NCBI GenBank assembly: GCA_964485485.1
Contig: CAZAJW010000234.1
Span: 1 to 60,813, forward strand
DNA from: an uncultured Atribacterota bacterium
Lineage (GTDB): Bacteria; Atribacterota; Phoenicimicrobiia; Phoenicimicrobiales; Stramentimicrobiaceae
Direction of reading: 5' to 3'
Length of the DNA: 60,813 nucleotides
Both the position numbers and the translations under genes were made by a program. Of this stretch, positions 2,264-60,813 are shown in pieces. The notes under the pieces are model-generated. The model did not search any database. It was not told the DNA's origin and saw only the letters and a list, made by a program, of their open reading frames with translations. The stretch's first letter is position 1. Each line of letters starts with the position of its first letter.

Positions 2264-3284
2264 AACTATTCCTTATATTTTTTCTAATGATATCTTTTGG
2301 CAATAAATATCTTTTGCCGTTTAATATCATTCGAATATTTTTTATATCATTTTCTTTAGCATAATAATATGCAATAACACTTTCCAATCCAAAAGAAGTG
2401 TACCTGCCAATTTTTAACAAATTTAATAAAAAATTGTCACTAAGGCGTTCAATTTCCAGCAAGGATTTGTTTTCCTGCCAATGTTTAATCCCCTCTTCCA
2501 CAAGGGAAGAATAGTCAGTTTTTTCAAAATAGTTTGGCCATGAATGGACAGAGTTTTCATAAATATCTATTATCTTTTGCGGAGAAAAGTTACCATATTT
2601 TATTAATATTTCAGATAAATTTGCTTTCTTAATATGTCTAACTTTACATCTGCAGGCAATCAAGATATTCAATAAATCAATTTCCGTTTTATAAAAATAG
2701 AATAAAAAAGGTTGATTGATATCTTCCAAATTATTAAATATTATTTCGTAATATGCATTATCTAAGGAAATTTCCATTAACTGTAAATCTTCGTATTTCA
2801 TATACAATTCCTCAGACTGTTTAATAAATCGTTCAATTAGAATAGGTACTGACTGATATTTTCCATCAAAAACGGCAGCCCTTAATATATCTTGACTTAT
2901 GTTTCCGATTTCATAGATTGGAGCTTTTTCCTTTTTGTCGAGGATTTTTGTCTTTAATAGAACCTTAAGGTTGTGAAAGTCATATTTCCAATTAAATAAC
3001 TTAAATAAATATGGATAAGGAGATATTTCTGCAATTAATTTAATAGTCTTTTTTAAAATATTTACTAAATGATTGTCAATTGCCACGGGTTCAGTATTTT
3101 CAAAAATATATTCATTAAGATTACTTTCTGAAAAAACTTTTATGGCATTTTCCAGGTCTTGCGATTCAATCAATTTATCCAATATTTCTTGATTCAGTAA
3201 ATTTTTTTCTAATTCTCTGACTCTGGCACATGCATAGCCATAATCTTCCTGTGTATTTGTGCTCTCGTTGATGTATTTAAGCAT
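2256..3284 (-). CDS. atpC: V-type ATP synthase subunit C (d-like)
   Basis: 342-aa helical protein between subunits E and F, overlapping both neighbours by 8 nt (translational coupling). The call rests mainly on size and operon position. Confidence 0.75.
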   Translation of the reverse strand: MLKYINESTNTQEDYGYACARVRELEKNLLNQEILDKLIESQDLENAIKVFSESNLNEYIFENTEPVAIDNHLVNILKKTIKLIAEISPYPYLFKLFNWKYDFHNLKVLLKTKILDKKEKAPIYEIGNISQDILRAAVFDGKYQSVPILIERFIKQSEELYMKYEDLQLMEISLDNAYYEIIFNNLEDINQPFLFYFYKTEIDLLNILIACRCKVRHIKKANLSEILIKYGNFSPQKIIDIYENSVHSWPNYFEKTDYSSLVEEGIKHWQENKSLLEIERLSDNFLLNLLKIGRYTSFGLESVIAYYYAKENDIKNIRMILNGKRYLLPKDIIRKNIRNSYV

Positions 3285-3917: not shown

Positions 3918-4394
<477 letters not shown>

Positions 4395-4435
4395 TCAAAT
4401 CCCCCTTTTCTATCTTTTTCTAAATTTATTTCATT

Positions 4436-4500
4436 AAATAGCGCACCCGCTTATTTAACCATCACCAGCTTCAAAGAAGGTGGTTTTGTTGTTAAATAAA
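4436..4500 (+). repeat. Mosaic intergenic repeat, minimal copy (A-stub fused to E hairpin)
   Basis: AAATAGCGCACCCGC is joined directly to TTATTTAACCATCACCAGCTTCAAAGAAGGTGGTTTTGTTGTTAAATAAA. The copy lies between the atpI stop (4521) and the atpK start (4391). Strand is the A->E reading direction. Confidence 0.8.
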
Positions 4501-4520
4501 CTCATCTAAAAAGATTTTTT

Positions 4521-6512
4521 TTATTGTATTTTTTCCTCTACTTTAGTATATATTGTCTTGAGATTAAACGGTTTAAAGGCAACTCCTCCAGCTTGATAAA
4601 ATTTTGTGAAAAATTCTACATATTGTAGTCTGGCATCATGAATAAAAGCGCTTAATCCACTAATTAATAAGTTAAAAACATGTCCAATAAACAATATGAT
4701 TAAAGTCAAAAATATTCCTATATAGGGCACATTAGCCATCGTGGCAAGCATATTAAACATGGTGGCAATTATACCTGTGGCTAAACCTAGTGCGAACAAT
4801 CTAGAATAGGAAAGAACATCACTGAAATATCCTGTAATATTATATAAAGATAGTATCCCGCTACCAATTCTCATTATAATATTCTTGTTTGTCCTTCCTT
4901 GGGTAAAGATGAGTGTAAGGACACCAATTATCAATAGAAACCATGCTATTTTACCAAAAATCGGGGCTAGCATTCCTTGCACTAAAAGCAAAATAATGCC
5001 TGTTAATAAAATTAACCATGATATTTGATCCATAAGCCCATCTATTAATCTATCTTTTTTTAGATTATCTAAGAATTTTAAAATAATTCCCATATAAACT
5101 TGTATGACCCCCAAAGAAAGACTAAAAATCAAAAGCGGAATAGGATTGTCTGTTGGGTCAAATAAGGAAACTTTCTGAACCAAGAAATATCTTATATTAT
5201 CAAATATAGGTGGCAAATAACTTAAAATATCTCCAAACCAGCTACCAACGACTATTCCTCCAAATATTCCGGCAATTCCGCAATAATAAAGCAATCTGAA
5301 GAACTTTCTAGCACTACCTTCCAAACCCAATTTATTAATGGCAAGATAGCATAAAATAGCCATAACAGCACCATAACCAACATCGGAGAGACAGAATCCA
5401 AAAAAGATAAAATAGAATATTGAAAGAATTGGAGTCGGATCCATCTCAAAATAATTTGGAAGACTATAAAGCTCAGTTATTACTTCAAAGGGCTTAACAA
5501 ATTTGTGATTGTCTAAAGAAACAGGAACCTGGTCATCTTTATTTGGTTCAGAAAAATAGGCTTCATAAGCCTTGAAATGTTCTTTTAATCTACTCTGTAG
5601 TCTAGAAATATCTTTTTCACGTATCCAACCTTTTATTACAAAGGATTGTTCACTTTTTTTCAGATATTCTGAAACCTCTTCTTTTTCTTTGTTAATCGAT
5701 AAGAAATCATAAATTTTGTAGATTGATTGATTATTTTTAAAAATATCTTTTAACTCTAATTCAATTTTTTTTCTTCTTTTGCTAATATCACTTAATTCTT
5801 TTGAAATTTCTTTTAATATTTGAATTGGAGATCCAGAAAAATTATAATTATATTTATAAATTTCAAAGTGGTATTTCTGAGCAATTCGCTGTATTTCCTC
5901 AATATTTTCTTTTACACTAATAACAATAATATTAGATTTGTTTTTTTCTTCTTTTATAGTTTGGATAACATTTAATTTACTATGTTGTTTTACTTCATTG
6001 AAAAAACTATCCAGATTGTTTTTAGCTATTGAACCCAAGAGATATCTGACATATTTTGACTGATTAATTGTGCTTAAATCAAGTTCTAACTCTTTCCAAT
6101 CCTTGAGTTCCAGTTCGATAGCCTTTAACTTATTTTCCTGTAGCTTAAGATTATTAAGCTCATTATCAAAATCTTTACATTGCTGATATAATTCGTTATA
6201 TTCCAATTGCTGTGATAATTCAACTAGCTTAGTATAATCTAATGTTTCTTTTGAAGAAAACAATGATTTTAATCCATTATTTTTTTCTTCTTGGTAATTA
6301 GAAAGAAGATCAATGCAAAATTTAACCTTGTTTAGTTCTGCGGATATATTAGCATCAAGATTCTCTTCAATATTTTCCCAATCATGAAATACAGTTTTTT
6401 TGCTGATATGTATAATTTCAACAGAACCTAATTTTTGCAATTCCTCTAGCAACTGTTCTTTTATTGATAAGTGTGCAAAAATATGGAATTTATTTACTTT
6501 AGATATTGCCAT
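4521..6512 (-). CDS. atpI: V-type ATP synthase subunit I (a-subunit, stator/ion channel)
   Basis: 663 aa with a cytoplasmic coiled-coil N-half and a multi-TM C-half. Its operon position is upstream of K. Confidence 0.85.
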   Translation of the reverse strand: MAISKVNKFHIFAHLSIKEQLLEELQKLGSVEIIHISKKTVFHDWENIEENLDANISAELNKVKFCIDLLSNYQEEKNNGLKSLFSSKETLDYTKLVELSQQLEYNELYQQCKDFDNELNNLKLQENKLKAIELELKDWKELELDLSTINQSKYVRYLLGSIAKNNLDSFFNEVKQHSKLNVIQTIKEEKNKSNIIVISVKENIEEIQRIAQKYHFEIYKYNYNFSGSPIQILKEISKELSDISKRRKKIELELKDIFKNNQSIYKIYDFLSINKEKEEVSEYLKKSEQSFVIKGWIREKDISRLQSRLKEHFKAYEAYFSEPNKDDQVPVSLDNHKFVKPFEVITELYSLPNYFEMDPTPILSIFYFIFFGFCLSDVGYGAVMAILCYLAINKLGLEGSARKFFRLLYYCGIAGIFGGIVVGSWFGDILSYLPPIFDNIRYFLVQKVSLFDPTDNPIPLLIFSLSLGVIQVYMGIILKFLDNLKKDRLIDGLMDQISWLILLTGIILLLVQGMLAPIFGKIAWFLLIIGVLTLIFTQGRTNKNIIMRIGSGILSLYNITGYFSDVLSYSRLFALGLATGIIATMFNMLATMANVPYIGIFLTLIILFIGHVFNLLISGLSAFIHDARLQYVEFFTKFYQAGGVAFKPFNLKTIYTKVEEKIQ

Positions 6513-6513
6513 T

Positions 6514-6825
6514 TTAATTCACCAAATTATCTAATATCATTTCAATTGCCTGATTGCATTTCTTTTTAAAATCATTTCTAAGTCTTTCTTTTTCATTTTT
6601 GCTATTTTCAAGAATTTCTTTTGCTTTTTGTTGAGCTTTTTTTGTTCGGTCTTCTATCATGTCCTGACCCTTTTGATTCCATTCCTTGATTGCATTGTTT
6701 TTAATCTTTTCTTGTTTATCCTTTTCCTCTTGAACCATTCTTTGGCCTTCTTTTTTTGCATCTTCAATCATTTTTACTGCTTCATGTTCAGTATCTTTTA
6801 ATTCTTTTATGATTTTTTTTAACAT
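6514..6825 (-). CDS. V-type ATP synthase small stalk subunit (G/H-like)
   Basis: 103-aa Lys/Glu-rich coiled-coil protein. It is the first gene of the operon and ends 1 nt before subunit I, matching the position of subunit H (archaeal) or G (Thermus). No catalytic motif is available to confirm it. Confidence 0.55.
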   Translation of the reverse strand: MLKKIIKELKDTEHEAVKMIEDAKKEGQRMVQEEKDKQEKIKNNAIKEWNQKGQDMIEDRTKKAQQKAKEILENSKNEKERLRNDFKKKCNQAIEMILDNLVN

Positions 6826-6886
6826 ATTAATCTACTCCCAAAAAGGACTAATTTAATAATTTATAAATACAGTATTATTATTCAAT

Positions 6887-6981
6887 AAATATCGCACCCG
6901 CAGAGCGGGTGGTTTCAAAGACCTCTGAAAGAGGTTTAATTTTTTACCACATTAGAAGGAGGTTGTTTATGGTTAAATAAA
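6887..6981 (+). repeat. Mosaic intergenic repeat, short copy (A + B + 3' half of E)
   Basis: It reads AAATATCG-CACCCG-cagag-CGGGTG-G, then ACCTC-tgaaa-GAGGT plus a T-run, then ..AGAAGGAGGTTGTTTATGGTTAAATAAA. Confidence 0.85.
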
Positions 6982-7210
6982 AAAAATATATTAAATAAAA
7001 CAATACACTTTAGAAAAAATATCATAAATAACTATTTAAGTCAATTTTACAATTGTATCAATAAAGATATTATTATTGAAATTTAAATACCTTGAATTTA
7101 GGTTAGTTCTAACCAATATTTAATGTTTGTCAATTATTAATATGAGCTATTATTCTTTTTAAAATAAAATCCATATAGGTATCTAAAATGTTTCTTTAAA
7201 CTAAAAAAGT

Positions 7211-7381
7211 AAATATCGCACCCGCAGAGTGAGTGGCTTTAATATTTCTTCAGCAATACAACTTCCAACTTAGGACTTCAGATAAAAAATGTATCTAGCT
7301 TATATTAATCTTTTTATGGTAAATCCATTTATTTAACTATTATTACCTTCTTAGAAGGTAGTTTTCCATGGGTTAAATAAA
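7211..7381 (+). repeat. Mosaic intergenic repeat (A + distal C + D + E)
   Basis: It begins AAATATCGCACCCGcagagTGAGTGG. Next comes ..AATATTTCTTCAGCAATACAACTTCCAACTTAGGACTTCAG..ATCTAGCTTA..TTTTTATGGTAA... It ends with the E hairpin TTATTTAACTATTATTACCTTCTTAGAAGGTAGTTTTCCATGGGTTAAATAAA. Confidence 0.88.
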
Positions 7382-7400
7382 ATAAATAAAATTATTTTAG

Positions 7401-8030
7401 TTAATCAGATTTTAATTGTTTTACAATGTCAAGATACATTTGTAACCTTTTTTTGGCACCTTCAATAATACCATATTTTTCTTCTTTTATTCTTTGTGTT
7501 AAATTATGCAACTTTACTTTGCTGACCCTATAGTCATACTTTTTTACAACTTTGGTGATTGCTAACTCAAGACCATACTTCAGTAAATCCATATTGGGGA
7601 TTGCATCAATAATTTGTCTTTTAATTGCTCTCTGTCCAGAAAGATAAGGCATTAAGAATTGGGGTAAATCCGTTAGTAATCTTCCCTGGGTAAAAATACC
7701 GAGAGTCATATCGGCAGTATTTTCTCTTATGGGGTTTATTAAAGCATAAACATGTTCATTATTTAATCCGATTAAATCAGCATCTAAGAACAACAATATA
7801 TCAGAGTCAGTTTTTTCAAATCCTCTTTTAATTGCCCCTCCCTTGCCAATATTTTCTTTCATCTGATAAACATCTACATTTAATCCACGTGCAATAGCTA
7901 CCGTATCGTCAGTTGAACCATCACTTACTACAATGATATCATTAATTTCGGGAACATTTTTTACTGTTTTGATTACATCTGCAATAGTAATTTCCTCATT
8001 GTAAGCAGGTATAATAACTGATATTTTCAT
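7401..8030 (-). CDS. Family 2 glycosyltransferase (GT-A fold, dolichol/polyprenol-phosphate glycosyltransferase-like)
   Basis: 209 aa with MKISVIIPAYNEE..., VVSDGSTDDT and LDADL (DxD) motifs. SD AGGTGA lies 4 nt upstream of the ATG. It is monocistronic and bracketed by repeat copies. Confidence 0.75.
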   Translation of the reverse strand: MKISVIIPAYNEEITIADVIKTVKNVPEINDIIVVSDGSTDDTVAIARGLNVDVYQMKENIGKGGAIKRGFEKTDSDILLFLDADLIGLNNEHVYALINPIRENTADMTLGIFTQGRLLTDLPQFLMPYLSGQRAIKRQIIDAIPNMDLLKYGLELAITKVVKKYDYRVSKVKLHNLTQRIKEEKYGIIEGAKKRLQMYLDIVKQLKSD

Positions 8031-8047
8031 CTATTCACCTTTTTTGG

Positions 8048-8178
8048 GAGTATTTTTTAGTTTTTTCTTTCGTTTTTTTATTTATTCTTTAGCTATAATA
8101 TTCCTTAAGCAATAGTACTTCCAACTTTGGACCTCAGGCAAAAAATTGTATCTAGCTTATCTCAATCTTTTTATGGAA
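8048..8178 (+). repeat. Mosaic intergenic repeat, partial (C + D only)
   Basis: ..TTTTTCTTTCGTTTTTTTATTTATTCTTTAGCTATAATATTCCTTAAGCAATAGTACTTCCAACTTTGGACCTCAGGCAAAAAATTGTATCTAGCTTATCTCAATCTTTTTATGGAAAA. It fills the spacer between the ispG stop and the GT2 start. Confidence 0.85.
8095..8124 (-). promoter_or_regulatory. Sigma-70/SigA-like promoter carried by repeat module C, positioned to drive the GT2 gene
   Basis: The minus strand reads TTGGAA (8124-8119), an 18-nt spacer, then TATTAT (8100-8095), about 60 nt upstream of the GT2 ATG at 8030. The same TTGGAA-17-TATTAT occurs in the 36605 copy (36739-36711) and TTGGAA-18-TATTAA in the 7211 copy. Confidence 0.4.
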
Positions 8179-8186
8179 AATTAAAG

Positions 8187-36427: not shown

Positions 36428-36604
36428 TAGTTGTTACTACTATTCACTGCTAGTATATATAATATATTTAATGAAATCAAGTAGTATATTTATAATTTTT
36501 TTTTGCCTTAATTTTATATTTATTTTAATAATGTTAAGTTTTTTAATTGATAAAAAGCTAAAAAAATATTTTTTTTAATATGATTTATAATATTCAAATA
36601 TAAC

Positions 36605-36797
36605 AAATATCGCACCCGTTTAGCGGGTGGTTTAAAAAACCCTAGAAGAGGTTTAGTTTTTTGCTACTTTTTAGCTATTTTTCTTTCGATTTTTTATTTA
36701 TGCTTAAGCTATAATATTTCTAAGCAATATAACTTCCAACTTTGGGCTTCAGGTGAAAAATTACCATCTAGCTTACCTTAATATTTTTATGGTAAAA
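36605..36797 (+). repeat. Mosaic intergenic repeat (A + B + C + D, no E)
   Basis: This is the best-preserved A-D copy. It begins AAATATCGCACCCGtttagCGGGTGG...CCCTAGAAGAGGTTTAGTTTTTT. It continues ...CTTTCGATTTTTTATTTATGCTTAAGCTATAATATTTCTAAGCAATATAACTTCCAACTTTGGGCTTCAGGTGAAAAATTACCATCTAGCTTACCTTAATATTTTTATGGTAAAA. Confidence 0.9.
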
Positions 36798-36813
36798 ACA
36801 TTTTAACAAAGTT

Positions 36814-36841
36814 ATAGAGTGTCAGAATATTGACACTCTAT
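36814..36841 (-). terminator. Candidate intrinsic terminator downstream of rpmF
   Basis: Perfect 11-bp stem ATAGAGTGTCA / TGACACTCTAT with a 6-nt loop, about 68 nt after the rpmF stop. The minus-strand tail is only moderately T-rich. Confidence 0.45.
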
Positions 36842-38364: not shown

Positions 38365-39660
38365 ATGGAAACATTAGGCATTATTGCTGAATATAATCCT
38401 TTTCATAATGGACATCTATATCATTTGCAAAAATCAAAAGAGATAACCGGGGCTAAGCATAGTATTGCTATAATAAGCGGGAATTTTCTTCAAAGGGGAG
38501 AGCCGGCTATTTTAGACAAATGGACTCGTACTATAATGGCTTTAAAAGCTGGGATTGATCTTGTTATTGAGATTCCATTTGTTTTTGCAAGCCAAGATGC
38601 CCGTGGATTTGCTCATGCCGGTATTCAACTTTTGAATTATTTGGGTATTGTAGATTGTGTTTCTTTTGGTTGTGAGGAAAGCCAAATAGCATGTTTAAAT
38701 GAATTAGTAGAGTTGTTAAAAAAAGAACCACTCTATTTCCAAAAAATACTAAAGGAAGAGGTAAAAAAAGGTGAAAATTACCCAAAAATACGGGAGAAGG
38801 CAATAGTAAAATATTATAAGAAGTTTGGAACTAAATTTAAAAACAATTCAATAGAGAAATTGAAAGAACTATTAAAACAACCAAATAATGTTTTGGCTTT
38901 AGAATATATGATATCTTTAAAAAATACAAATAGCTCTATTAAGCCATTTCCAATCAATCGTATCGGTTCAAACTATTTACAGGATAAATTAGAAGGGAAA
39001 TATTCCAGTGCTACTGCAATAAGAGAAAGAATATTTAAAAATATTTTTAATAATAACCCTATTCCTTTAGAAGGATTAAGCCCATCTATGCCTGTTTCTT
39101 CATATCAAATAATTCTAGATGAACTAAAAAAAGGCATTAATCCTATTACAATATCATGTTTTGAACAGGGAATTTTTAGCCAATTAAGAAGAATGCCAAT
39201 TGAAGAAATCAAAGAATTGCATGGTATTCAAGAAGGATTAGAAAATAGGCTAAAAGAAAGTGCAATATCATCTTTTAACATTGAAAATTTAATACAAAAA
39301 ACTAAAAGTAAACGCTATACCAGGACCAGAATACAAAGGATATTAGTTCATAGTTTATTTAATTTGAAACATAAAGAGATTGTGGCTTTTAACAATAAAG
39401 GTCCTCTCTATTGTCGGGTTCTCGGCATGACAGAAAACGGCAAAATGTTACTTAAAAGAATTAAATCGAAATCAAAATTGCCTATTATTATTAAATTAAA
39501 TAATTTTTACCAACAAAATAAATTTAGTGGAGATGTGATAGTACAAAAAATGTTAAATTACGATATATTGGCTACCAACCTATATGTATTAGGGTATAAA
39601 CTTAAAATGGCCAGAGTAGGAGCCCAGGATTATACCAGGAAAATTATAATTTTACCATGA
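38365..39660 (+). CDS. tmcAL: tRNA(Met) cytidine acetate ligase TmcAL (YlbM/UPF0348 nucleotidyltransferase)
   Basis: 431 aa with the N-terminal GIIAEYNPFHNGHLYHL HIGH-like motif. It neighbours coaD/rsmD as ylbM does in Bacillus. The TGA stop shows the standard code is in use. Confidence 0.85.
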   Translation: METLGIIAEYNPFHNGHLYHLQKSKEITGAKHSIAIISGNFLQRGEPAILDKWTRTIMALKAGIDLVIEIPFVFASQDARGFAHAGIQLLNYLGIVDCVSFGCEESQIACLNELVELLKKEPLYFQKILKEEVKKGENYPKIREKAIVKYYKKFGTKFKNNSIEKLKELLKQPNNVLALEYMISLKNTNSSIKPFPINRIGSNYLQDKLEGKYSSATAIRERIFKNIFNNNPIPLEGLSPSMPVSSYQIILDELKKGINPITISCFEQGIFSQLRRMPIEEIKELHGIQEGLENRLKESAISSFNIENLIQKTKSKRYTRTRIQRILVHSLFNLKHKEIVAFNNKGPLYCRVLGMTENGKMLLKRIKSKSKLPIIIKLNNFYQQNKFSGDVIVQKMLNYDILATNLYVLGYKLKMARVGAQDYTRKIIILP

Positions 39661-39838
39661 TAAAGATGAAGAGAAGCTATCTGACAATTTTTCACCCGAA
39701 GGCCAAAACTAGCAGTTAAATTGCTTAGAATTATTCAGTTATAATATAAGAAAAAAGCCGAACAAAAAAAGTAACTAAGAAAAAGTTGAACCCCTTTTAG
39801 GGACTCTTAAAGCAACCTGCTTAGCGGGTACGATATTT
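39650..39838 (-). repeat. Mosaic intergenic repeat, inverted copy (D-C-B-A as read on the plus strand)
   Basis: The plus strand reads TTTTACCATGATAAAGATGAAGAGAAGCTATCTGACAATTTTTCACCCGAAGGCCAAAACTAGCAG...CCCCTTTTAGGGAC...AACCTGCTTAGCGGGTACGATATTT. It fills the whole spacer between the convergent genes tmcAL and coaD and overlaps both stop codons. Confidence 0.88.
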
Positions 39839-40315
39839 ACTGAATTTTATTTTCAATTGTTTGGCAACATATGCCGGTACTAAATCGCTGATACAACCAT
39901 TTAAAGAGGCAATTTCTTTGACTATGCTGGAGTTAAGATAAGAGTATTTTGTACTTGTTACCATAAAGACTGTTTCAATTTCCGGAGCCATTTTCTTATT
40001 AATAAGAGCAAATTGAGACTCGTATTCGAAATCAGAAATTGCCCTCATACCTCTCAATATTACATTTGCCTTATTTGAACGTACACAGTCGATTAATAAC
40101 CCATCAAAAGACTGGACTTCAATTCCTTTTAAATCTTTAACTACTTTATTAATCATAACTTTTTTTTCTTCAATGGAGAAAAAAGATTTTTTACGTGAAT
40201 TTTCTGCAATAACAACAATTACTTTATCAAATATATTGCTTGCCCTTTTAATAATATCAAGATGCCCATTAGTAATTGGATCAAAACTTCCTGGATAGAT
40301 GGCTTTTATCATCAA
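39821..40315 (-). CDS. coaD: Phosphopantetheine adenylyltransferase
   Basis: 164 aa with YPGSFDPITNGHLDI. The last six codons plus the stop lie inside repeat module A. Confidence 0.95.
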   Translation of the reverse strand: MMIKAIYPGSFDPITNGHLDIIKRASNIFDKVIVVIAENSRKKSFFSIEEKKVMINKVVKDLKGIEVQSFDGLLIDCVRSNKANVILRGMRAISDFEYESQFALINKKMAPEIETVFMVTSTKYSYLNSSIVKEIASLNGCISDLVPAYVAKQLKIKFSKYRTR

Positions 40316-40335
40316 TATCTCCTTTTAATGATTAT

Positions 40336-40893
40336 TTACCCTTTATAATTAAAAAGTGTAATTTTAGTTTTTCCATATCTTTTTTCTTTAAGAAAGAATA
40401 ACTTTTCAAAACTCCCCTGCACATCTTCATTGATCTGATGTTGTGCTATAATTATAGAATTATTTTTTAAAATATAGTTTCTTTCAATTTCATATAATGT
40501 TTTTTGAATAATATTTTTATAATAAGGTGGATCTAAGAAAATAATATCAAATTTCTTCTGTTTAAAGTTCAGCATTTTTAATGACTGCATATGATTATTG
40601 TTTATAATGTTTGAAAAATCATTTTGATTAATTTTAATTAAATTCGATTTAATTAAATCTATGGCATGACTATTGATCTCTACAAAAGTAACTCTTTTTG
40701 CACCCCTGCTAAGGGCTTCTATGCCAATGGCACCTGTCCCTGCAAATAAATCTAAAAAATCAGATTCAATAACTTTGAATCCAAGTATATCAAACACAGC
40801 TTCCCTTATTTTGGATGGTGTAGGTCTAATTTTTTTGCCAGGGAATGATTGTAATGGGAATCCTTTATATAAACCTGCTATAATTCTCATCAA
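40336..40893 (-). CDS. rsmD: 16S rRNA (guanine966-N2)-methyltransferase RsmD
   Basis: 185 aa with a SAM-binding DLFAGTGAIG motif and the catalytic FLDPPY motif. Confidence 0.9.
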   Translation of the reverse strand: MMRIIAGLYKGFPLQSFPGKKIRPTPSKIREAVFDILGFKVIESDFLDLFAGTGAIGIEALSRGAKRVTFVEINSHAIDLIKSNLIKINQNDFSNIINNNHMQSLKMLNFKQKKFDIIFLDPPYYKNIIQKTLYEIERNYILKNNSIIIAQHQINEDVQGSFEKLFFLKEKRYGKTKITLFNYKG

Positions 40894-41030
40894 AATATCA
40901 CCTTTTGAAATATTTTATGTTATTAAAACAATTTTAAATAATATTATCTGTTTGCTTGATTAATGTTACTCAACTATGATAAAATATATTTTGTAATTTT
41001 TCAAGAATATATTATCTGGAGGAAATAATT

Positions 41031-41219
41031 ATGGCAAAATGTGACATTTGTGGAAAAACCCCTCTATTTGGGAAACAGATTAGTCATTCGCATAAATTAA
41101 GTAATAGAAAATGGTCTGTTAATATTCAAAAAGTTAGAGTTAAGGTTAATAATACTGTTCGCAAAGTAAATGTATGTACTAAATGCTTAAAATCAGGCAG
41201 AGTAGAAAAGATTGCCTAA
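41031..41219 (+). CDS. rpmB: 50S ribosomal protein L28
   Basis: 62 aa starting MAKCDICGKTPLFGKQISHSHKLSNRKW. SD GGAGG lies upstream. Confidence 0.95.
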   Translation: MAKCDICGKTPLFGKQISHSHKLSNRKWSVNIQKVRVKVNNTVRKVNVCTKCLKSGRVEKIA

Positions 41220-41293
41220 TTTGCTTTTTTATTGGAATCTAAAAGATTATATTGCTAATTAATGATTATAAATTATTTTTAAAAAAATCTTAT

Positions 41294-41339
41294 AAAAGAT
41301 TATCAAAAATTAATTAATTTCTGATAATCTTTTTTTATT
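41294..41339 (+). terminator. Candidate intrinsic terminator of rpmB
   Basis: Perfect 12-bp stem AAAAGATTATCA (41294-41305) / TGATAATCTTTT (41322-41333) with a 16-nt loop, followed by TTTTATTT. Two smaller AAAAGATT-type hairpins precede it. Confidence 0.55.
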
Positions 41340-41440
41340 TAATCATGAAAAAAGATATAGAGCAGCTATCTGACAATTTGTCATCTGATAAACCTCTTTT
41401 AGGAATTCTTAAAACTACCTGCTTTATAGGTGCGATATTT
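41340..41440 (-). repeat. Mosaic intergenic repeat, inverted short copy (D fragment + B + A)
   Basis: The plus strand reads ..ATCATGAAAAAAGATATAGAGCAGCTATCTGACAATTTGTCATCTGATAAACCTCTTTTAGGAATTCTTAAAACTACCTGCTTTATAGGTGCGATATTT. It lies between the rpmB terminator and the ispH stop. Confidence 0.82.
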
Positions 41441-42299
41441 ACTGATTCATCTGAAATATTTTTTTTATCCTATTAATTACACTTTCAGTGATATAATCAG
41501 GGGTAGAAGCTCCACTGGTAATTCCGATTTTATTCTTTTCTTTAAACCAGTTTTTCTTTATCTCTTGGGCTGTTTCGATATGATGTGTGTCTACACCTAT
41601 TTTTTTACTTAATTGGGCTAAGCGGGTAGTATTAGCACTATTTAATCCACCAACTACAATCATTAAGTCCACTTTCTTAGCTAATTTTCTAGTTGAGTTT
41701 TGTCTTAGACTTGTTGCCTTGCATATTGTATTAAAAATCCTTAATTCCTCAACGTTTTCAAATATTTTGGAAATTATTTGCTTAAATTCTTCTTTATCTT
41801 TAGTTGTTTGTGAGATTAATCCAATTTTACTTTTATCACTAAACGAATAGTCTTTAATGTCATCAATGGATTGGAAAACCTTAGCATTAACATTATTGTA
41901 ACTCAATAAGCTTTTTATTTCAGGGTGGTTAGTGTCACCAAAAATTATAATTTGGTAATTTTCTTTTCTTAAAAGATCTGTAATTTGATGTAATTTTTTA
42001 ACATAAGGGCATGTTGTGTCAATGAGTTTGAGATCATGTTTTTTCGCCAATTGTCTTTCATGATATGAAATGCCATGAGCTCTGGTAATAAGATATTTGT
42101 GAAAGGGAACCTGCGAAACATCCTGAACTATGTGAACTCCTTTTGATTCAAATTCACTTATAACTTGGGGGTTATGGATAATTTCTCCAAGCATGTAGAT
42201 ATTGTCATTTTGTATTTCTTTTAGCAGCTGGTTCGCCTTGTTAATTGCTCTTTTTACCCCGAAACAAAAACCAATGTTTTGGGCTTTAAATATTTCCAA
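41439..42299 (-). CDS. ispH: 4-hydroxy-3-methylbut-2-enyl diphosphate reductase
   Basis: 286 aa with GFCFGVKRA and conserved Cys residues for the 4Fe-4S cluster. The stop codon straddles the end of a repeat copy. Confidence 0.94.
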   Translation of the reverse strand: MEIFKAQNIGFCFGVKRAINKANQLLKEIQNDNIYMLGEIIHNPQVISEFESKGVHIVQDVSQVPFHKYLITRAHGISYHERQLAKKHDLKLIDTTCPYVKKLHQITDLLRKENYQIIIFGDTNHPEIKSLLSYNNVNAKVFQSIDDIKDYSFSDKSKIGLISQTTKDKEEFKQIISKIFENVEELRIFNTICKATSLRQNSTRKLAKKVDLMIVVGGLNSANTTRLAQLSKKIGVDTHHIETAQEIKKNWFKEKNKIGITSGASTPDYITESVINRIKKIFQMNQ

Positions 42300-49387: not shown

Positions 49388-49450
49388 AATATCTCATCCG
49401 TTATCTAAAAATATTGAATATATATAATCTTTCAGGAAAGGATTACAAGC

Positions 49451-49634
49451 AAATATCGCACCCGCATAGTGCGTGTCTTTAAGTACCCCCAAAAGAGTTT
49501 TATTTTAGCTCTTTCTTCTTTCGATTTTATTTATACTTTAGCCAGAATATTTCTTAAGCAATATAACTTTTGACTTTGGACTTCAGGTAATAAATTATTA
49601 GATAGCCTATCTTAATCTTTATTTATGGTAATAC
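49451..49634 (+). repeat. Mosaic intergenic repeat (A + B + C + D, no E)
   Basis: AAATATCGCACCCGcatagTGCGTG...CTTTCGATTTTATTTATACTTTAGCCAGAATATTTCTTAAGCAATATAACTTTTGACTTTGGACTTCAGGTAATAAATT..AGATAGCCTATCTTAATCTTTATTTATGGTAAT. The pdp stop follows 5 nt later. Confidence 0.88.
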
Positions 49635-49638
49635 TATT

Positions 49639-50967
49639 TTAGTTAAGTTTTTTTAATCCACATTTATCAATGACAGCTAATAACAAGGGTTCTTCTTCCG
49701 GTTTTTTATCAATAATGTGAAAAGCATTCTTTGCTATATTTTTTGCATTAAAATATCTTTTTTCATCATTAAAATATAGTGTTGCTAAAGCCTCTTTTAA
49801 ACTTACGTAATCACCTTTTTTCTTTTTTAATATTATTCCGACAGATAAATCTACTTTTGCATCTTTCACTTCCCTGCCTGCTCCCAGGGCCATAGAAGCT
49901 TCACCAATCATGCGTGCATCAACTACATCAATAAATCCATTTCTTTCAGAATATATATTTTTTTTATACTTTGCTTTCGGTAATAAATCAGTGCTGTCTA
50001 TTTGCCTTATATCACCATTTTGGCTTTTTACTATTTGCCTGAATTTTCCTAATGCCTTACCATTTCCTAAAACCTCTTTTAGTATATTAACTCCATCTTT
50101 TGGATTACTAATAACTTCAGCTGCCATTAACATGTATGACCCTATACAAAGACAAAGTTCTCTTAAATCATCAGGACCTTGATTATTTAATAATGCAATT
50201 GCTTCTTCTATTTCAAGAGAATTGCCAATTGCATATCCCAGGGGTTGATCCATCGAGGAAACAATTGCATAAGTAGCTTTATTATTATTTTCCCCAATAT
50301 TAACCATTGTTTTGCCTAACAAAATGGCATCATTAATATTTTTTATAAAAGCTCCCTTACCAACTGTTATATTTAAAACAAATGCATCTGCCCCACCAGC
50401 AATCTTTTTGCTCATAATACTACTGGCAATCAGGGGAATGCTGTCGATGGTACCCGTAACATCTCTTAAGGAATATATTTTTTTATCTGCTGGTGCAATA
50501 TTAATATTGGCACTGATAATCGAGGCGTTCACATCTTTAACAATTTCAATAAACCTTCTAATAGAAAGATTGGTTTTAAAGCCATTTATTGATTCTAATT
50601 TATCAATAGTTCCACCAGTATGACCTAATCCACGACCAGAAATTTTAGGAATCGGAACACCTGCAGCAGCAACCATTGGTAACAATGCCAGAGAAGTTTT
50701 ATCTCCAACACCTCCTGTGCTATGTTTATCAATTTTTTTCCCAGATATTGAGCTTAGATCTAATGTTTCACCTGATTTAGCCATGGTTATAGTCAAATCA
50801 TTAATTTCCCGTTCAGTCATTCCATTAAACCAAATAGCCATAAGAAGTGAGGACATTTGATAATCTCGTATTTTTCCGTTTAAGTAATTATCAATAATAA
50901 ATTGTATTTCTTCTGTAGATAGCGCTTTGTTGTTCTTTTTTTTCTCAATAATTCCGATAATATTCAC
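49639..50967 (-). CDS. pdp: Pyrimidine-nucleoside phosphorylase
   Basis: 442 aa with HSTGGVGDKTS and full-length Pdp/DeoA similarity. It uses a GTG start with no obvious SD. Confidence 0.93.
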   Translation of the reverse strand: MNIIGIIEKKKNNKALSTEEIQFIIDNYLNGKIRDYQMSSLLMAIWFNGMTEREINDLTITMAKSGETLDLSSISGKKIDKHSTGGVGDKTSLALLPMVAAAGVPIPKISGRGLGHTGGTIDKLESINGFKTNLSIRRFIEIVKDVNASIISANINIAPADKKIYSLRDVTGTIDSIPLIASSIMSKKIAGGADAFVLNITVGKGAFIKNINDAILLGKTMVNIGENNNKATYAIVSSMDQPLGYAIGNSLEIEEAIALLNNQGPDDLRELCLCIGSYMLMAAEVISNPKDGVNILKEVLGNGKALGKFRQIVKSQNGDIRQIDSTDLLPKAKYKKNIYSERNGFIDVVDARMIGEASMALGAGREVKDAKVDLSVGIILKKKKGDYVSLKEALATLYFNDEKRYFNAKNIAKNAFHIIDKKPEEEPLLLAVIDKCGLKKLN

Positions 50968-51036
50968 AACAGAAGTAGTCAGAGGACTAGATGTCCCTGA
51001 AATCCTTTCAAAATAATATTTTAACTTATTACAGTG

Positions 51037-51275
51037 AAAATCGTACTCGCATAGCGGGTAGATTAAGAGCCTTTAAAAGAAGTTTATCTTTTTTTTACTC
51101 TTTTTCTTTTTTCGATTTTTTGTTTATATTTTAACTATACTTCTAAGAAATATTGTTTTATATTTTGAGTTTCAGGTGAAAAATTGTTAGATAGCATATC
51201 TTAATTTTTATTTCTGACAAAACTATTTTATTTAACCATTACCAACTTTTAAGAAGTTGGTAATGGTTAAATAAA
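51037..51275 (+). repeat. Mosaic intergenic repeat, full-length copy (A-B-C-D-E)
   Basis: All five modules are present. The A hairpin is TACTCG-catag-CGGGTA (51044-51060). E is a perfect 21-bp inverted repeat, TTATTTAACCATTACCAACTT (51228-51248) with AAGTTGGTAATGGTTAAATAA (51254-51274). Confidence 0.9.
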
Positions 51276-51282
51276 TATAATA

Positions 51283-53247
51283 TTATAAAAATAAAGGTAT
51301 AAAAACCAACGATACAATGGACATAACTTTAATTAAAATATTCATAGATGGCCCTGCTGTATCTTTAAAAGGGTCTCCGACTGTATCACCGATAACTCCT
51401 GCTTGATGTGCTGGTGAATTTTTACCACCATAGTTTCCTTTCTCGATATATTTTTTTGCATTATCCCAGGCACCCCCGGAATTGGCCATCATAATCGCTA
51501 AAAATACTCCTACAACAACTGAACCCAGTAAAAGACCCCCAAGAGCTTCTGGACCAAGAAATACGCCAACAAAAATAGGAGCAATAATAGCAAGCAATCC
51601 TGGTATTATCATTTCTTTCAGTGCACCCTTTGTGCTAATATCTACACATTTTTCTGGTTCTGGTTTAGCAGTGCCTTCTTTTAAACCAGGTATTTCTTTA
51701 AATTGTCTTCTTACTTCAGCAATCATTAATGACGCGGTTTTTCCAACAGCTTCTATTGTCATGGAAGCAAAAAGGAATGGTAATATGCCTCCAATAAAAA
51801 TACCAATCATTACCATGGGATTAGTAATACTAATAATACTCAATTCTACAGATTTACTATATGCAGTAAATAATGCTAATGCGGTTAAAGCGGCTGAGCC
51901 AATGGCAAATCCTTTCCCAATAGCTGCAGTAGTATTTCCTACAGCATCCAATGAATCGGTAATCTTTCTTACTTCAGGTTTCAGCCCAGCCATTTCGGCT
52001 ATTCCTCCTGCATTATCTGCTATAGGTCCATAAGAATCAACCGATACTGTCATGCCTACAATAGATAGCATTCCAACTGCAGCAACAGATATGCCATACA
52101 GCCCTGCAAAATAATGAGAAACATAAATTGCTATACAAATGACAATAATAGGTAATGCTGTGCTTTTGAGCCCCACCGCAAATCCTTCCAGAATTGTAGT
52201 TGCAGCTCCTGTTAATGATGCTTCTGATATTCTTTTTACCGGAGAATAATCATAGGAAGTATAATATTCTGTAATCAACCCAATTGCTACACCGGCAATT
52301 AAACCGGAAATCGTTGCAAAGAATATTGACAGATTTCCAAACAATGCATAAGACAAAGCAAAAGACACAACTACTACCAGTGCACCACTTATATATGTAC
52401 CTAAATTTAATGCCTTATGGATACTTCGGTCATCCTTGGGGGATATGAAAAAAGTTGCAATAATTACAGAAATGATCCCACAAGAAGCAAGAATTAAGGG
52501 ATAGGTAATATAGTTTACCGAATCGTGCAATATGCTACCCAATATCATGCATGACAAAATAGAACCTACAAAAGATTCGAACAAATCTGCTCCCATCCCT
52601 GCTACATCTCCAACATTGTCTCCAACATTGTCTGCTATTACTGCAGGGTTCCTTGGATCGTCTTCAGGTATTCCTGCCTCAACTTTTCCAACTAAATCAG
52701 CTCCTACATCTGCAGCTTTCGTATAGATACCACCACCAACTCTGGCAAATAGAGCTATTGAACTAGCACCTAAAGCGAAGCCATTAATTAAGTTAGGGTC
52801 TTCGTATAAATAATATAAAATACCTAAACCAACTAGGCCAAAACCGGCTACTGACATACCCATTACTGCTCCTCCGGAAAAGGCAATTTTTAGTGCTTTT
52901 GCCAATCCGGATTCCTGAGCTGCAAATGTGGTTCTTGCGTTAGTCTTTGTAGCAATTTTCATACCTATAAATCCTGCTAATGCCGAACATGCTGCTCCAA
53001 ATACAAATGAAATACCAGTTATGTTTCCTCTAACTAATACAATTATAATTGCAATGATAATAACAAAAAATATCAAAATCGAATATTCTCTTTTTAAAAA
53101 TGTCATTGCACCTTTTTCAATCGACATTGAGAGTTGCTGCATTAAATCGCTCCCTGCTTTTTCAGACATAACACGTTTTGCCAGTATCATTGCATATAAC
53201 AACGATATTAAACCACTAAGAATGATCATCATCTTAATTACCAACAT
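51283..53247 (-). CDS. hppA: Membrane-bound pyrophosphatase, K+-dependent type (H+ or Na+ pumping)
   Basis: 654 aa, about 16 TM, with DNVGDNVGD and [10 protein letters not shown]. Ala rather than Lys in GNTT[A/K]A marks K+-dependent enzymes. Confidence 0.93.
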
Positions 53248-60423: not shown

Positions 60424-60493
60424 TGTTTAATCAAAACCCCTATTGTTATAACATTGAAATATTGTATTATATTTCTTTTATGCTCTAGTTATC

Positions 60494-60727
60494 AGATATT
60501 GTCCCCGCATAGCTGGTAGCTCTAAGAACTTCTAAAAGGGGTCAATTATCTGTTTAGTTTTAGTTAACCTTTTTTCTACTATTTTAACTGAAATATTTAC
60601 AAGTAATATAACTCTTTTAGATTTTAGATGAAAAATGATCATATGGATTATCTAGATATTTTTATGGTTAAATTTTCATTTAACCATTACCAACTTCTAA
60701 GAAGGTGGTTTTTCATGGTTAAATAAA
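60494..60727 (+). repeat. Mosaic intergenic repeat, full-length but most divergent copy (A-B-C-D-E)
   Basis: AGATATTGTCCCCGcatagCTGGTAGC...CTTCTAAAAGGGG...TTTTAACTGAAATATTTACAAGTAATATAACTC...TATCTAGATATTTTTATGGTTAAATTTTCATTTAACCATTACCAACTTCTAAGAAGGTGGTTTTTCATGGTTAAATAAA. Confidence 0.85.
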
Positions 60728-60813
60728 CGGATTGGGAAGTAATTTATTCGCCTTTTTTATTTTAATTTCATTATGGAGGTTTGTCATTATAACATCCATC
60801 TCTGGTGAAAACT

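Follow-up and report, generated by a model that had tools for sequence, protein, structure and literature searches.

In the enterobacteria, the REP and BIME elements are short, GC-rich hairpins arranged in mosaic modules, which are found at the 3' ends of genes and in operons, and act as partial terminators or as stabilizers of the 3' end of the mRNA. The MIRU of the mycobacteria are tandem units of 40-100 bp, located inside operons, which carry small ORFs. In the pneumococcus, the BOX, RUP, and SPRITE repeats are found preferentially between convergent genes and follow the bias of the coding strand, with approximately 61% oriented on the leading strand, and they have been seen as mobile elements on which selection has acted to avoid the disturbance of transcription (Croucher et al. 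2011, PMC3049150).

The repeat described here is of the same kind as the BOX/SPRITE and REP/BIME-like elements. It is a high-copy, non-autonomous, modular, and intergenic sequence, specific to one clade of the Atribacterota, and represents an apparently undescribed family; a full-text literature search for repeats of the Atribacterota or Oleincola found no description. The bias in its orientation is a known type of phenomenon, which limits the conceptual novelty of the case.

Copies of the repeat in the window

The window, that is, the whole stretch of 60,813 nucleotides that was analyzed, is approximately 92% identical to contigs of Ca. Oleincola secundus. A profile search and alignment located exactly ten copies or fragments of the repeat (modules A to E), which make up approximately 3% of these 61 kb, and the core motif occurs eight times, against 0.04 expected by chance. 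The modules are combined as A-B-C-D-E, A-B-C-D, A-B-D, A-B, C-D, and A+E. No tRNA or tmRNA was found in a scan of the window, which also contains no transposase genes.

Eight copies are forward, reading A to E on the plus strand, and two are inverted, each behind one of the only two plus-strand genes, a tally on which the profile search and the original prediction agree. All five modules are present in the forward copies at 51017..51292 (+), between the genes of a pyrophosphatase (stop 51283) and a pyrimidine-nucleoside phosphorylase (start 50967), and at 60482..60751 (+), upstream of recO (start 60423), where the gene on the E side lies past the end of the window. The A-B-C-D combination is found at 49429..49650 (+), between the pyrimidine-nucleoside phosphorylase (stop 49639) and the A-adding tRNA nucleotidyltransferase (start 49387), and at 36592..36806 (+), in the gap from rpmF to fapR, downstream of a native hairpin (36814-36841). 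The remaining forward copies are partial. The start of module A is fused to an E hairpin at 4422..4512 (+), between the genes of subunits I and K in the V-type ATPase operon, while A-B with a remnant of E (6872..6988, +) lies 46 nt upstream of the first gene of this ATPase (subunit H, start 6825). The copy at 7189..7396 (+), which retains A, D, E, and a part of C, has its E end 4 nt from the stop (7401) of a GT2 glycosyltransferase gene, and a copy formed by C and D only (8053..8184, +) lies between ispG (stop 8187, 2 nt from the D end) and the GT2 gene (start 8030, 22 nt from the C end), with TTGGAA-18-TATTAT on the gene-sense strand.

Both inverted copies occupy convergent gaps. The A-B-C-D copy at 39647..39861 (-) separates the tmcAL-type nucleotidyltransferase gene (38365..39660, +) from coaD (39821..40315, -); its D end holds the TGA stop of the former (39658-39660), and the 3' end of coaD enters its module A, which provides the last codons (..SKYRTR*) and the stop (39821-39823). 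The second inverted copy, A-B-D without C and E (41335..41456, -), lies between rpmB (L28; 41031..41219, +) and ispH (41439..42299, -). Its A end holds the TAA stop of ispH (41439-41441), and its D end is 115 nt behind rpmB, past what reads in the sequence as rpmB's own hairpin and T7 (~41297-41337).

The repeat rewrites the last codons of coaD and, in a related contig, those of an ORF that is GNAT-like. It also provides stop codons, and breaks assemblies at the ends of contigs.

Architecture of the family

The element is an oriented unit of approximately 250 nt, in which two hairpins (A, a 17-nt palindrome, and B) are followed by module C, which is rich in T, module D, which is conserved, and, in some copies, the long hairpin E. 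The consensus of 71 full copies has sharp boundaries, beginning with (AGT)AAATATCGCACC and ending in either TTTTTATGGTAAAA or ATGGTTAAATAAA; these ends are not mutual reverse complements, and there are thus no terminal inverted repeats. Profile matches numbered 133 in the genome contigs and the window, and the addition of metagenome loci brought the total to 299 merged copies, which represent 213 independent sites in the Atribacterota genome and metagenome contigs. At 43 of the independent sites, only A/B is present, and an inverted A/B pair was found in a single case. Module E is present in 29-68% of the full copies, depending on the class of gap, and its hairpin lies at the D end in 64 of 65 cases. 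Across these loci, the repeat is found in leaders, in the interior of operons, and beside essential RNA genes.

The folding of single copies gave z = -1.2 and -1.1, and the element as a whole thus has no excess of structure over shuffled sequence. An RNAalifold analysis of 70 copies on both strands recovered hairpin A only (A' on the E-to-A strand), with no covariation, and compensatory changes are almost absent from the hairpins. When the non-Watson-Crick pairs were counted as G-U or A-C to identify the RNA strand, G-U on the gene-sense strand was slightly, and indecisively, in excess (hairpin A, 33 vs. 19; hairpin B, 61 vs. 47). The scan of the whole window against Rfam at gathering thresholds returned no match, and a lenient scan of one full copy returned only generic hairpin matches, far below threshold.

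Mobility at orthologous sites

Copies have been gained or lost at a number of orthologous sites. One locus (L092) is filled, while two others (L173 and L136), with flanks that are 97.5-99.5% identical, are empty; the filled site reads TTTTCAAAT, the element, and then AATTACG, and in the empty sites TTTTCAAAT is joined directly to TAATTACG, with no target duplication of 2 nt or more. The window copy at 36592-36806 is absent from the matching site in L057 (Ca. Oleincola secundus), likewise without target duplication, and at the tmcAL/coaD site both the window and L057 carry a copy, but L080 is empty. The copies at a given site may also differ in content or direction. At one orthologous site, the A-B-C-D of the window corresponds to A-B-E in L057, L038 carries A-B alone at the site of 51017..51292, and the copies of the window and L080 in the rpmF-fapR gap are oppositely oriented. 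These gains and losses indicate that the family is mobile now, or was so recently.

The classical hallmarks of a MITE, terminal inverted repeats and target-site duplication, are both absent. An AAT precedes the A-end junction in four empty sites, although this motif is weak in a genome of 30% GC. The only candidate found for an autonomous parent, in which an A/B end and a D/E end surround a gene, is the split copy at 6872-8184, which encloses the glycosyltransferase gene and no transposase. An unsystematic look at the proteins of approximately 1.5 Mb of loci also saw no transposase with matching ends.

Orientation relative to the flanking genes

In the original prediction, the D/E side of every copy faces the stop codon of a gene transcribed toward it, and the A side points downstream. 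In the window, this is true of all eight copies in the seven same-direction gaps (with the E-side gene of 60482-60751 lying past the end of the window), and does not extend to the inverted copies, in which module A, rather than pointing downstream, extends over the stops of coaD and ispH. These two copies are uninformative on the rule, because a convergent gap places one end of the element at a stop in either orientation. The probability of the arrangement, given previously as one in 500-1000, is thus approximately 0.01 in the window (two-sided p of 0.008-0.016 for the 8/8 informative copies).

The census confirmed that the orientation is non-neutral across the clade, as a 4:1 tendency rather than a law. 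In the same-direction gaps, 90 copies at independent sites read E to A with the genes and 22 against them (80%; p = 6e-11). In the convergent gaps, the copies are enriched 2.2-fold (p = 0.004). When compared with the local majority gene direction, a proxy for the direction of replication, the split in favor of the majority is 73:19 in same-direction gaps, 6:6 in convergent gaps, and 7:3 in divergent gaps. In addition, three of the copies flanked by genes of the minority direction follow those genes, and one follows the majority. The contrast between 73:19 and 6:6 mildly favors a cause linked to transcription, with a Fisher p of 0.036 under lenient cut-offs and 0.17 under strict ones. The earlier attribution of the pattern to transcription rather than replication is thus weakly supported by small classes, and the two explanations are confounded, because approximately 91% of the coding sequence in the examined loci is on one strand. 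The GC skew was rejected as a marker of replication, given that its flip with gene strand at 38-40 kb matches the composition of the coding strand alone.

In 47% of the co-oriented copies, fewer than 60 nt separate the end of the element from the next start codon. The distance to this start did not differ between co-oriented and anti-oriented copies (Mann-Whitney p = 0.76), and a pattern seen in a smaller data set vanished; some anti-oriented copies are apparently near downstream starts, as placed by a crude ORF caller. The anti-oriented copies inspected lie between unrelated genes (ABC ATPase / AlaX-like, FchA / RpiR regulator, and rpmF / fapR). With respect to age, the anti-oriented copies make up 8/27 of the most consensus-like third, and 4/27 of each of the other two, a trend in the direction predicted if selection purges such copies, but not significant (p = 0.32). 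This third, presumably the youngest, is still 70% co-oriented, which suggests that a bias of insertion may contribute.

Terminator polarity

The two strands of the element differ in their terminator signals. On the A-to-E strand, hairpin B is followed by at least five T in the next 9 nt in 84% of the copies; by the same measure, the E-to-A strand reaches 4% after A' and 0% after B'. The tail of hairpin E has at least six T in 28% of cases when read A to E, vs. 0% when read E to A. The signature of an intrinsic terminator is thus found in hairpin B, and in part in E, on the A-to-E strand only, and this strand is antisense to the flanking genes in 80% of the copies in same-direction gaps. The element is therefore a poor fit to a terminator for the gene that runs into its D/E side, one of the roles proposed originally, because the canonical hairpin and T-run signals are on the opposite strand. 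A lenient scan for terminators does flag hairpin A' followed by CGATATTT as terminator-like on the E-to-A strand, so that this permissive face may be leaky and not strictly neutral.

Some natural insertions appear, from the arrangement of the genes, to require read-through from E to A. A recent insertion of 257 nt, which reads E to A with both of its neighbors, is separated by 2 nt from the tRNA-Ser gene upstream and by 5 nt from the SRP RNA gene downstream, while a copy in a divergent gap lies inside the leader of a gene, with the ATG 36 nt past its A end. The V-ATPase operon has a fragment of the repeat in its interior.

Possible causes of the orientation bias

The bias may be the product of selection for transcriptional compatibility acting on a mobile repeat that is permissive in one direction, a reading to which we give about an even chance. 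When the element is read from A to E, hairpins B and E, with the T-runs that follow them, would be canonical intrinsic terminators, whereas in the E-to-A reading the same hairpins lack T-runs and the RNA polymerase would be able to pass, and a weak internal promoter may also be present in this direction; only the favored orientation, then, would probably let transcription through. Copies with the terminator face along the direction of transcription would be tolerated only at the true ends of transcription units, and purged by selection elsewhere, while permissive E-to-A copies would survive anywhere, including operons and leaders. The expected outcome would be a 4:1 excess of copies that read E to A with the genes between same-direction genes, and no preferred orientation between convergent genes, which is why the copies behind the two plus-strand genes of the window can be inverted. 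The family, its modules, the presence or absence of copies at orthologous sites, the bias itself, and the asymmetry of the terminator signals between strands are observed here, while selection, rather than a bias of insertion, is the cause that we infer.

The bias may, on the other hand, have been fixed at insertion and follow replication, the repeat having derived, as a non-autonomous element, from a single-strand DNA transposon of the IS200/IS605 or REP/RAYT type, which seems possible but doubtful. Strand-specific insertion at the fork would mimic a transcription rule where some 90% of the genes are co-oriented with replication, and the observed 91% of coding sequence on one strand is consistent with this, as are the similar fits to the majority direction (73:19) and to the flanking genes (90:22), the 7:3 split in divergent gaps, and the 70% co-orientation of the most consensus-like copies. 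The lack of terminal inverted repeats and of a target duplication of at least 2 nt, together with the hairpins near the ends and the AAT before the A-end junction in the empty sites, also resembles such a mechanism, although this AAT "target" is poor in information at 30% GC, and the unsystematic look at the proteins of ~1.5 Mb revealed no transposase that has matching ends. The convergent gaps argue against replication, with their 6:6 split relative to the majority and both window copies opposing it, as do the copies flanked by minority genes (3 vs. 1). The elements IS608 and ISDra2 reportedly target the lagging-strand template; if the A end of the repeat is taken as the left end, its active strand would lie on the leading-strand template, the reverse of the IS608 paradigm. 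A mover that requires neither terminal inverted repeats nor target duplication (an HUH/Y1 enzyme, for example, or another single-strand or RNA-guided recombinase), with a choice of strand coupled to transcription rather than replication, or else the genome-wide recruitment of the copies as one-way valves that block antisense and convergent transcription and pass sense transcription, together seem quite improbable.

Functional roles in the host have also been considered. The copies may be domesticated cassettes working from E to A, in the sense of the genes, either with an internal promoter in C'/D' and a leader formed by the B'-A' hairpins, or with a 3'-end hairpin that stabilizes or partly terminates the upstream mRNA, as the REP/BIME elements do. 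The sense strand, but not the A-to-E strand, has recurrent promoter-like sites (TTGGAA-17-TATTAT in 13/71 copies and TTTTCA-17-TATATT in 12/71), the C-D half-copy at 8053-8184 precedes a gene start by 22 nt, the D/E end adjoins the stop codon upstream while the A end is often 20-60 nt from the next start codon, and hairpins A and B have the slight G-U excess on the sense strand. The original proposal of a promoter cassette thus retains weak support from motifs in 25/71 copies, but these are only ~35% of the total, and the flanking genes are functionally unrelated. Given, in addition, that the copies are polymorphic between close relatives and have swapped modules at one site, which is unexpected for a required signal, that the hairpins have almost no compensatory variation, and that the element is no more structured than shuffled sequence, domestication of this type is unlikely. 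An antisense RNA was also suggested originally; a small antisense RNA gene read from A to E, with A/B insulating it upstream, a promoter in C, a transcript from D, and a terminator in E, would account for the hairpin and T-run of E at the D end in 64/65 cases, and for the B hairpin and T-run ahead of C. However, no recurrent promoter-like site was found on the A-to-E strand in the 71 copies, no more than 29-68% of full copies have module E, with a good T-run in only 28% of the E hairpins examined, D lacks conserved structure, and Rfam has no match, all of which makes this role very improbable indeed.

Comparison with known systems

The Atribacterota are a widespread and mostly uncultured phylum of the subsurface, and recognition of the repeat family would help the annotation and binning of their genomes. 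The family may also serve as a marker for strain typing, and as a natural test case of how selection at the level of transcription shapes the orientation of selfish DNA.

The IS200/IS605-derived, palindrome-associated elements share with the Atribacterota repeat the absence of terminal inverted repeats and target duplication, the hairpins near the ends, what may be an insertion beside a short motif, and a strong bias of strand or orientation. They differ in that no autonomous parent or Y1 transposase was found for the repeat, its AAT target is poorly defined, and its orientation in the convergent gaps does not follow the proxy for replication. The REP/BIME and REP-RAYT systems are also similar, with short, GC-rich hairpins in AT-rich intergenic DNA and mosaic modules, and the REP/BIME are likewise found at the 3' ends of genes and in the interior of operons, without terminal inverted repeats or target duplication. 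In contrast, a REP has 20-40 nt and usually occurs in inverted pairs, whereas the Atribacterota unit is oriented, has ~250 nt, and includes the long, non-palindromic modules C and D; unlike REP-RAYT, it has no GTAG-type motif, and no RAYT gene was identified (nor any transposase in the window). Like the MIRU, it is intergenic, oriented with the flanking transcription, and overlaps the stop or start codons of its neighbors with its ends, but it is dispersed, non-tandem, and non-coding.

The likeness to the pneumococcal repeats includes small size, high copy number, an intergenic location, and enrichment between convergent genes. The Atribacterota element is modular with variable content, as is BOX (boxA-B-C in that case, and A-E here), and, like SPRITE, is terminator-like and found near the 3' ends of genes. 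The sequences are nevertheless unrelated and belong to different phyla, and BOX and RUP have terminal inverted repeats and tight folding, both absent from the Atribacterota element. The bias is also much stronger in the Atribacterota, where 80% of the copies are oriented with the flanking genes, in comparison with approximately 61% on the leading strand in the pneumococcus.

The repeat family in the window

The window has a GC content of 30%, and its genes lie on the minus strand, except for two plus-strand genes, a tmcAL-type nucleotidyltransferase gene (38365-39660) and rpmB (41031-41219). A modular repeat was defined by repeat finding, multiple alignment, and a profile search. On its A→E strand, it is formed by hairpin A (AAATATCGCACCCGCATAGCGGGTGG), hairpin B (AACCTCTAAAAGAGGTT then TAACTTTTTT), a T-rich module C, a conserved module D (...TTCAGGTGAAAAATT..CTAGCTTATCTTAATCTTTTTATGGTAAAA), and an optional long hairpin, module E (TTTAACCATTACCACCTTCTTAGAAGGTGGTTTTTTATGGTTAAA). 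The profile search recovered exactly ten copies or fragments in the window, eight forward on the plus strand (4422-4512, 6872-6988, 7189-7396, 8053-8184, 36592-36806, 49429-49650, 51017-51292, and 60482-60751) and two inverted on the minus strand (39647-39861 and 41335-41456). Eight occurrences of the core motif were counted, versus 0.04 expected by chance. No Rfam family matched the window or a repeat copy, and no tRNA gene was found in the window.

A V-type ATPase operon (subunits H, I, and K, among others) occupies positions 3918-6825, where a repeat fragment composed of the start of A and the E hairpin separates the subunit I and K genes. Two half-copies, A-B (6872-6945, profile positions 22-96) and C-D (8053-8184, positions 91-223), resemble a single element split by approximately 1.1 kb of DNA containing an E remnant, the full copy at 7189-7396, and a GT2 glycosyltransferase gene (7401-8030), which may have been inserted into a repeat or captured between repeats.

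Orientation of the copies and their flanking genes

The original prediction held that the orientation of the copies follows local transcription, a pattern expected by chance once in 500-1000 trials. The observation is essentially right, and the facts behind it are accurate: eight copies are forward and lie amid minus-strand genes, and the two that are inverted follow the sole plus-strand genes. Its statistics were overstated, however, and its logic is weaker than claimed. Both inverted copies occupy convergent gaps, tmcAL/coaD and rpmB/ispH, where either orientation meets a stop codon, so neither can serve as evidence for the rule. What is informative in the window is that all eight copies in same-direction gaps, seven gaps in total, obey it (two-sided p = 0.008-0.016).

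In the copy at 39647-39861, the D end holds the tmcAL stop codon, and the A module encodes the final residues and the stop codon of coaD, while the ispH stop codon lies inside the A end (41439-41456) of the copy at 41335-41456. The codons and stop of the coaD C-terminus (..KFSKYRTR*) come from module A (39821-39861), and a GNAT-like ORF ending in ..SKYRTRIAGSFKNP* in L014, a related contig (2196-2765), reads A/B in the frame of coaD; module A provides host genes with C-terminal codons and with stops.

Beyond the window, 102 stretches of species-representative genomes matched in a pattern scan, and 93 of these carry the repeat family. The carriers are nearly all Atribacterota MAGs; among them is Ca. 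Oleincola secundus, whose contigs are approximately 92% identical to the window. A metagenome scan added 120 loci. With the element profile and an ORF caller that had been trained on genes of the window, 299 copies were obtained, which formed 213 independent sites once clustered by flanking sequence. In same-direction gaps, the E→A direction matches that of the genes at 90 independent sites (80%) and opposes it at 22 (p = 6e-11). The bias therefore holds outside the window, at 4:1, but is not absolute, and since anti-oriented full-length copies are genuine, one example being that at 6009-6210 in locus L024, which was checked with ORF and sequence tools, the rule is a strong tendency rather than a law. 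The convergent gaps, with 22 copies, are over-represented 2.2-fold (p = 0.004), and the divergent gaps hold 14. Distance to the downstream gene did not differ between orientations, and the anti-oriented copies were not significantly more consensus-like than the co-oriented ones.

Many of the copies, for example in L006, L011, L020, L034, L039, L047, L057, L060, and L074, are no more than a few hundred bases away from a contig end, which suggests that the repeat breaks short-read assemblies of Atribacterota MAGs. True copies were also found on two short contigs (L022 and L046; CAZOON01) of a MAG labelled Halanaerobiales, and could reflect either the mis-binning of Atribacterota contigs or a host range wider than this phylum.

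Transcription signals

The repeat is asymmetric in its predicted transcription signals. In 84% of 105 copies, the 9 nt after hairpin B on the A→E strand include at least five T, and in 28% of copies at least six T follow the inner stem of E on that strand; the matching figures for the E→A strand are 0-4% and 0%. As the T-runs are confined largely to the A→E strand, the common orientation turns the terminator-like face against the flanking genes, whereas a terminator serving the upstream gene would have to face the other way. The roles proposed in the original prediction, such as a terminator, a processing site, or a promoter cassette, were mostly unsupported in that form. The hairpin terminators of rpmF (36814-36841) and rpmB (about 41297-41337) sit between the stop codon and the repeat, which is therefore not the primary terminator in those two gaps. 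The anti-oriented copies that were annotated separate unrelated genes, a setting in which a terminator would be harmless, and one is wedged between a gene's stop codon and its own terminator.

Recurrent promoter-like sites are confined to the E→A strand, and no more than 25 of 71 copies carry one. Judging from the gene arrangement, E→A transcription must pass through, or begin within, the element in several natural cases. In locus L092, a recently inserted 257-nt copy (2697-2953), which begins 2 nt past a tRNA-Ser(GGA) gene (2601-2694) and ends 5 nt short of a large SRP RNA gene (2959-3222), fills the spacer, E→A with both genes; two near-identical contigs, L173 and L136, have no such copy and join the flanks directly (97.5-99.5% identity). 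A copy in a divergent gap has its A end 36 nt from the downstream ATG, with promoter-like sites upstream of the copy, and the fragment within the V-type ATPase operon is a further read-through case. Among the co-oriented copies, 47% end less than 60 nt before the next start codon.

Wobble pairs slightly favour the gene-sense strand (33 versus 19 in hairpin A, 61 versus 47 in hairpin B). Almost no compensatory changes were found in the hairpins, consensus folding recovered hairpin A alone (seen as A' on the E→A strand), and neither strand of a full copy folded better than its shuffled counterparts (z = -1.2 and -1.1).

Mobility, transcription, and replication

Orthologous sites vary in both the presence and the module content of the copies. 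The window copy at 36592-36806 is absent from L057, a locus of Ca. Oleincola secundus, and the rpmF-fapR gap of locus L080, from a more distant relative, has a copy in the opposite orientation to that of the window. The convergent tmcAL/coaD gap contains A-B-C-D in the window (39647-39861) and A-B-(end of D)-E in L057 (1399-1524), and is empty in L080 (~936-982), which indicates that modules are exchanged or lost at a fixed site. Two loci (L016 and L019) have copies at places that are empty in the window. The cleanest junction, in L092 versus L173 and L136, lacks both terminal inverted repeats and a target duplication and places the insertion directly after AAT, which is also found at the junction in other empty sites. 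These junctions resemble those of the IS200/IS605 and REP/RAYT types, which are derivatives of single-strand DNA transposons, and no transposase was found among the loci in an unsystematic protein survey.

This resemblance is the main reason for retaining replication-linked insertion as a serious rival explanation of the orientation bias. The GC skew of the window merely tracks the coding strand, and the contigs have no replication landmarks, so the majority gene direction of each locus (91% of the coding sequence) was taken as a proxy for replication direction. Copy orientation agreed with this proxy at 73 sites and disagreed at 19 in same-direction gaps, versus six and six in convergent gaps, and seven and three in divergent gaps, the contrast between the first two classes being significant at lenient cut-offs (Fisher p = 0.036), but not at strict ones (p = 0.17). 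Three of the copies between two minority-direction genes follow those genes, and one follows the majority. The claim that orientation tracks transcription rather than replication is thus favoured by the contrasts between gap classes, and the evidence leans towards a transcription-linked cause, although this is not proven.

Comparison with known repeats

Without terminal repeats or target duplications, the repeat is not a MITE, and it does not have the short inverted pairs of a REP, while its modules do form mosaics. It is best filed as a new addition to a known class, the oriented interspersed intergenic repeats, and its orientation bias, at 4:1, is unusually strong. Precedents include the REP/BIME elements of enterobacteria and, closest of all, the BOX, RUP, and SPRITE repeats of pneumococci. 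The pneumococcal repeats are modular or terminator-like, are enriched between convergent genes, and mirror the coding bias, and have been read as mobile DNA on which its own influence on transcription acts as a filter (PMC3049150).
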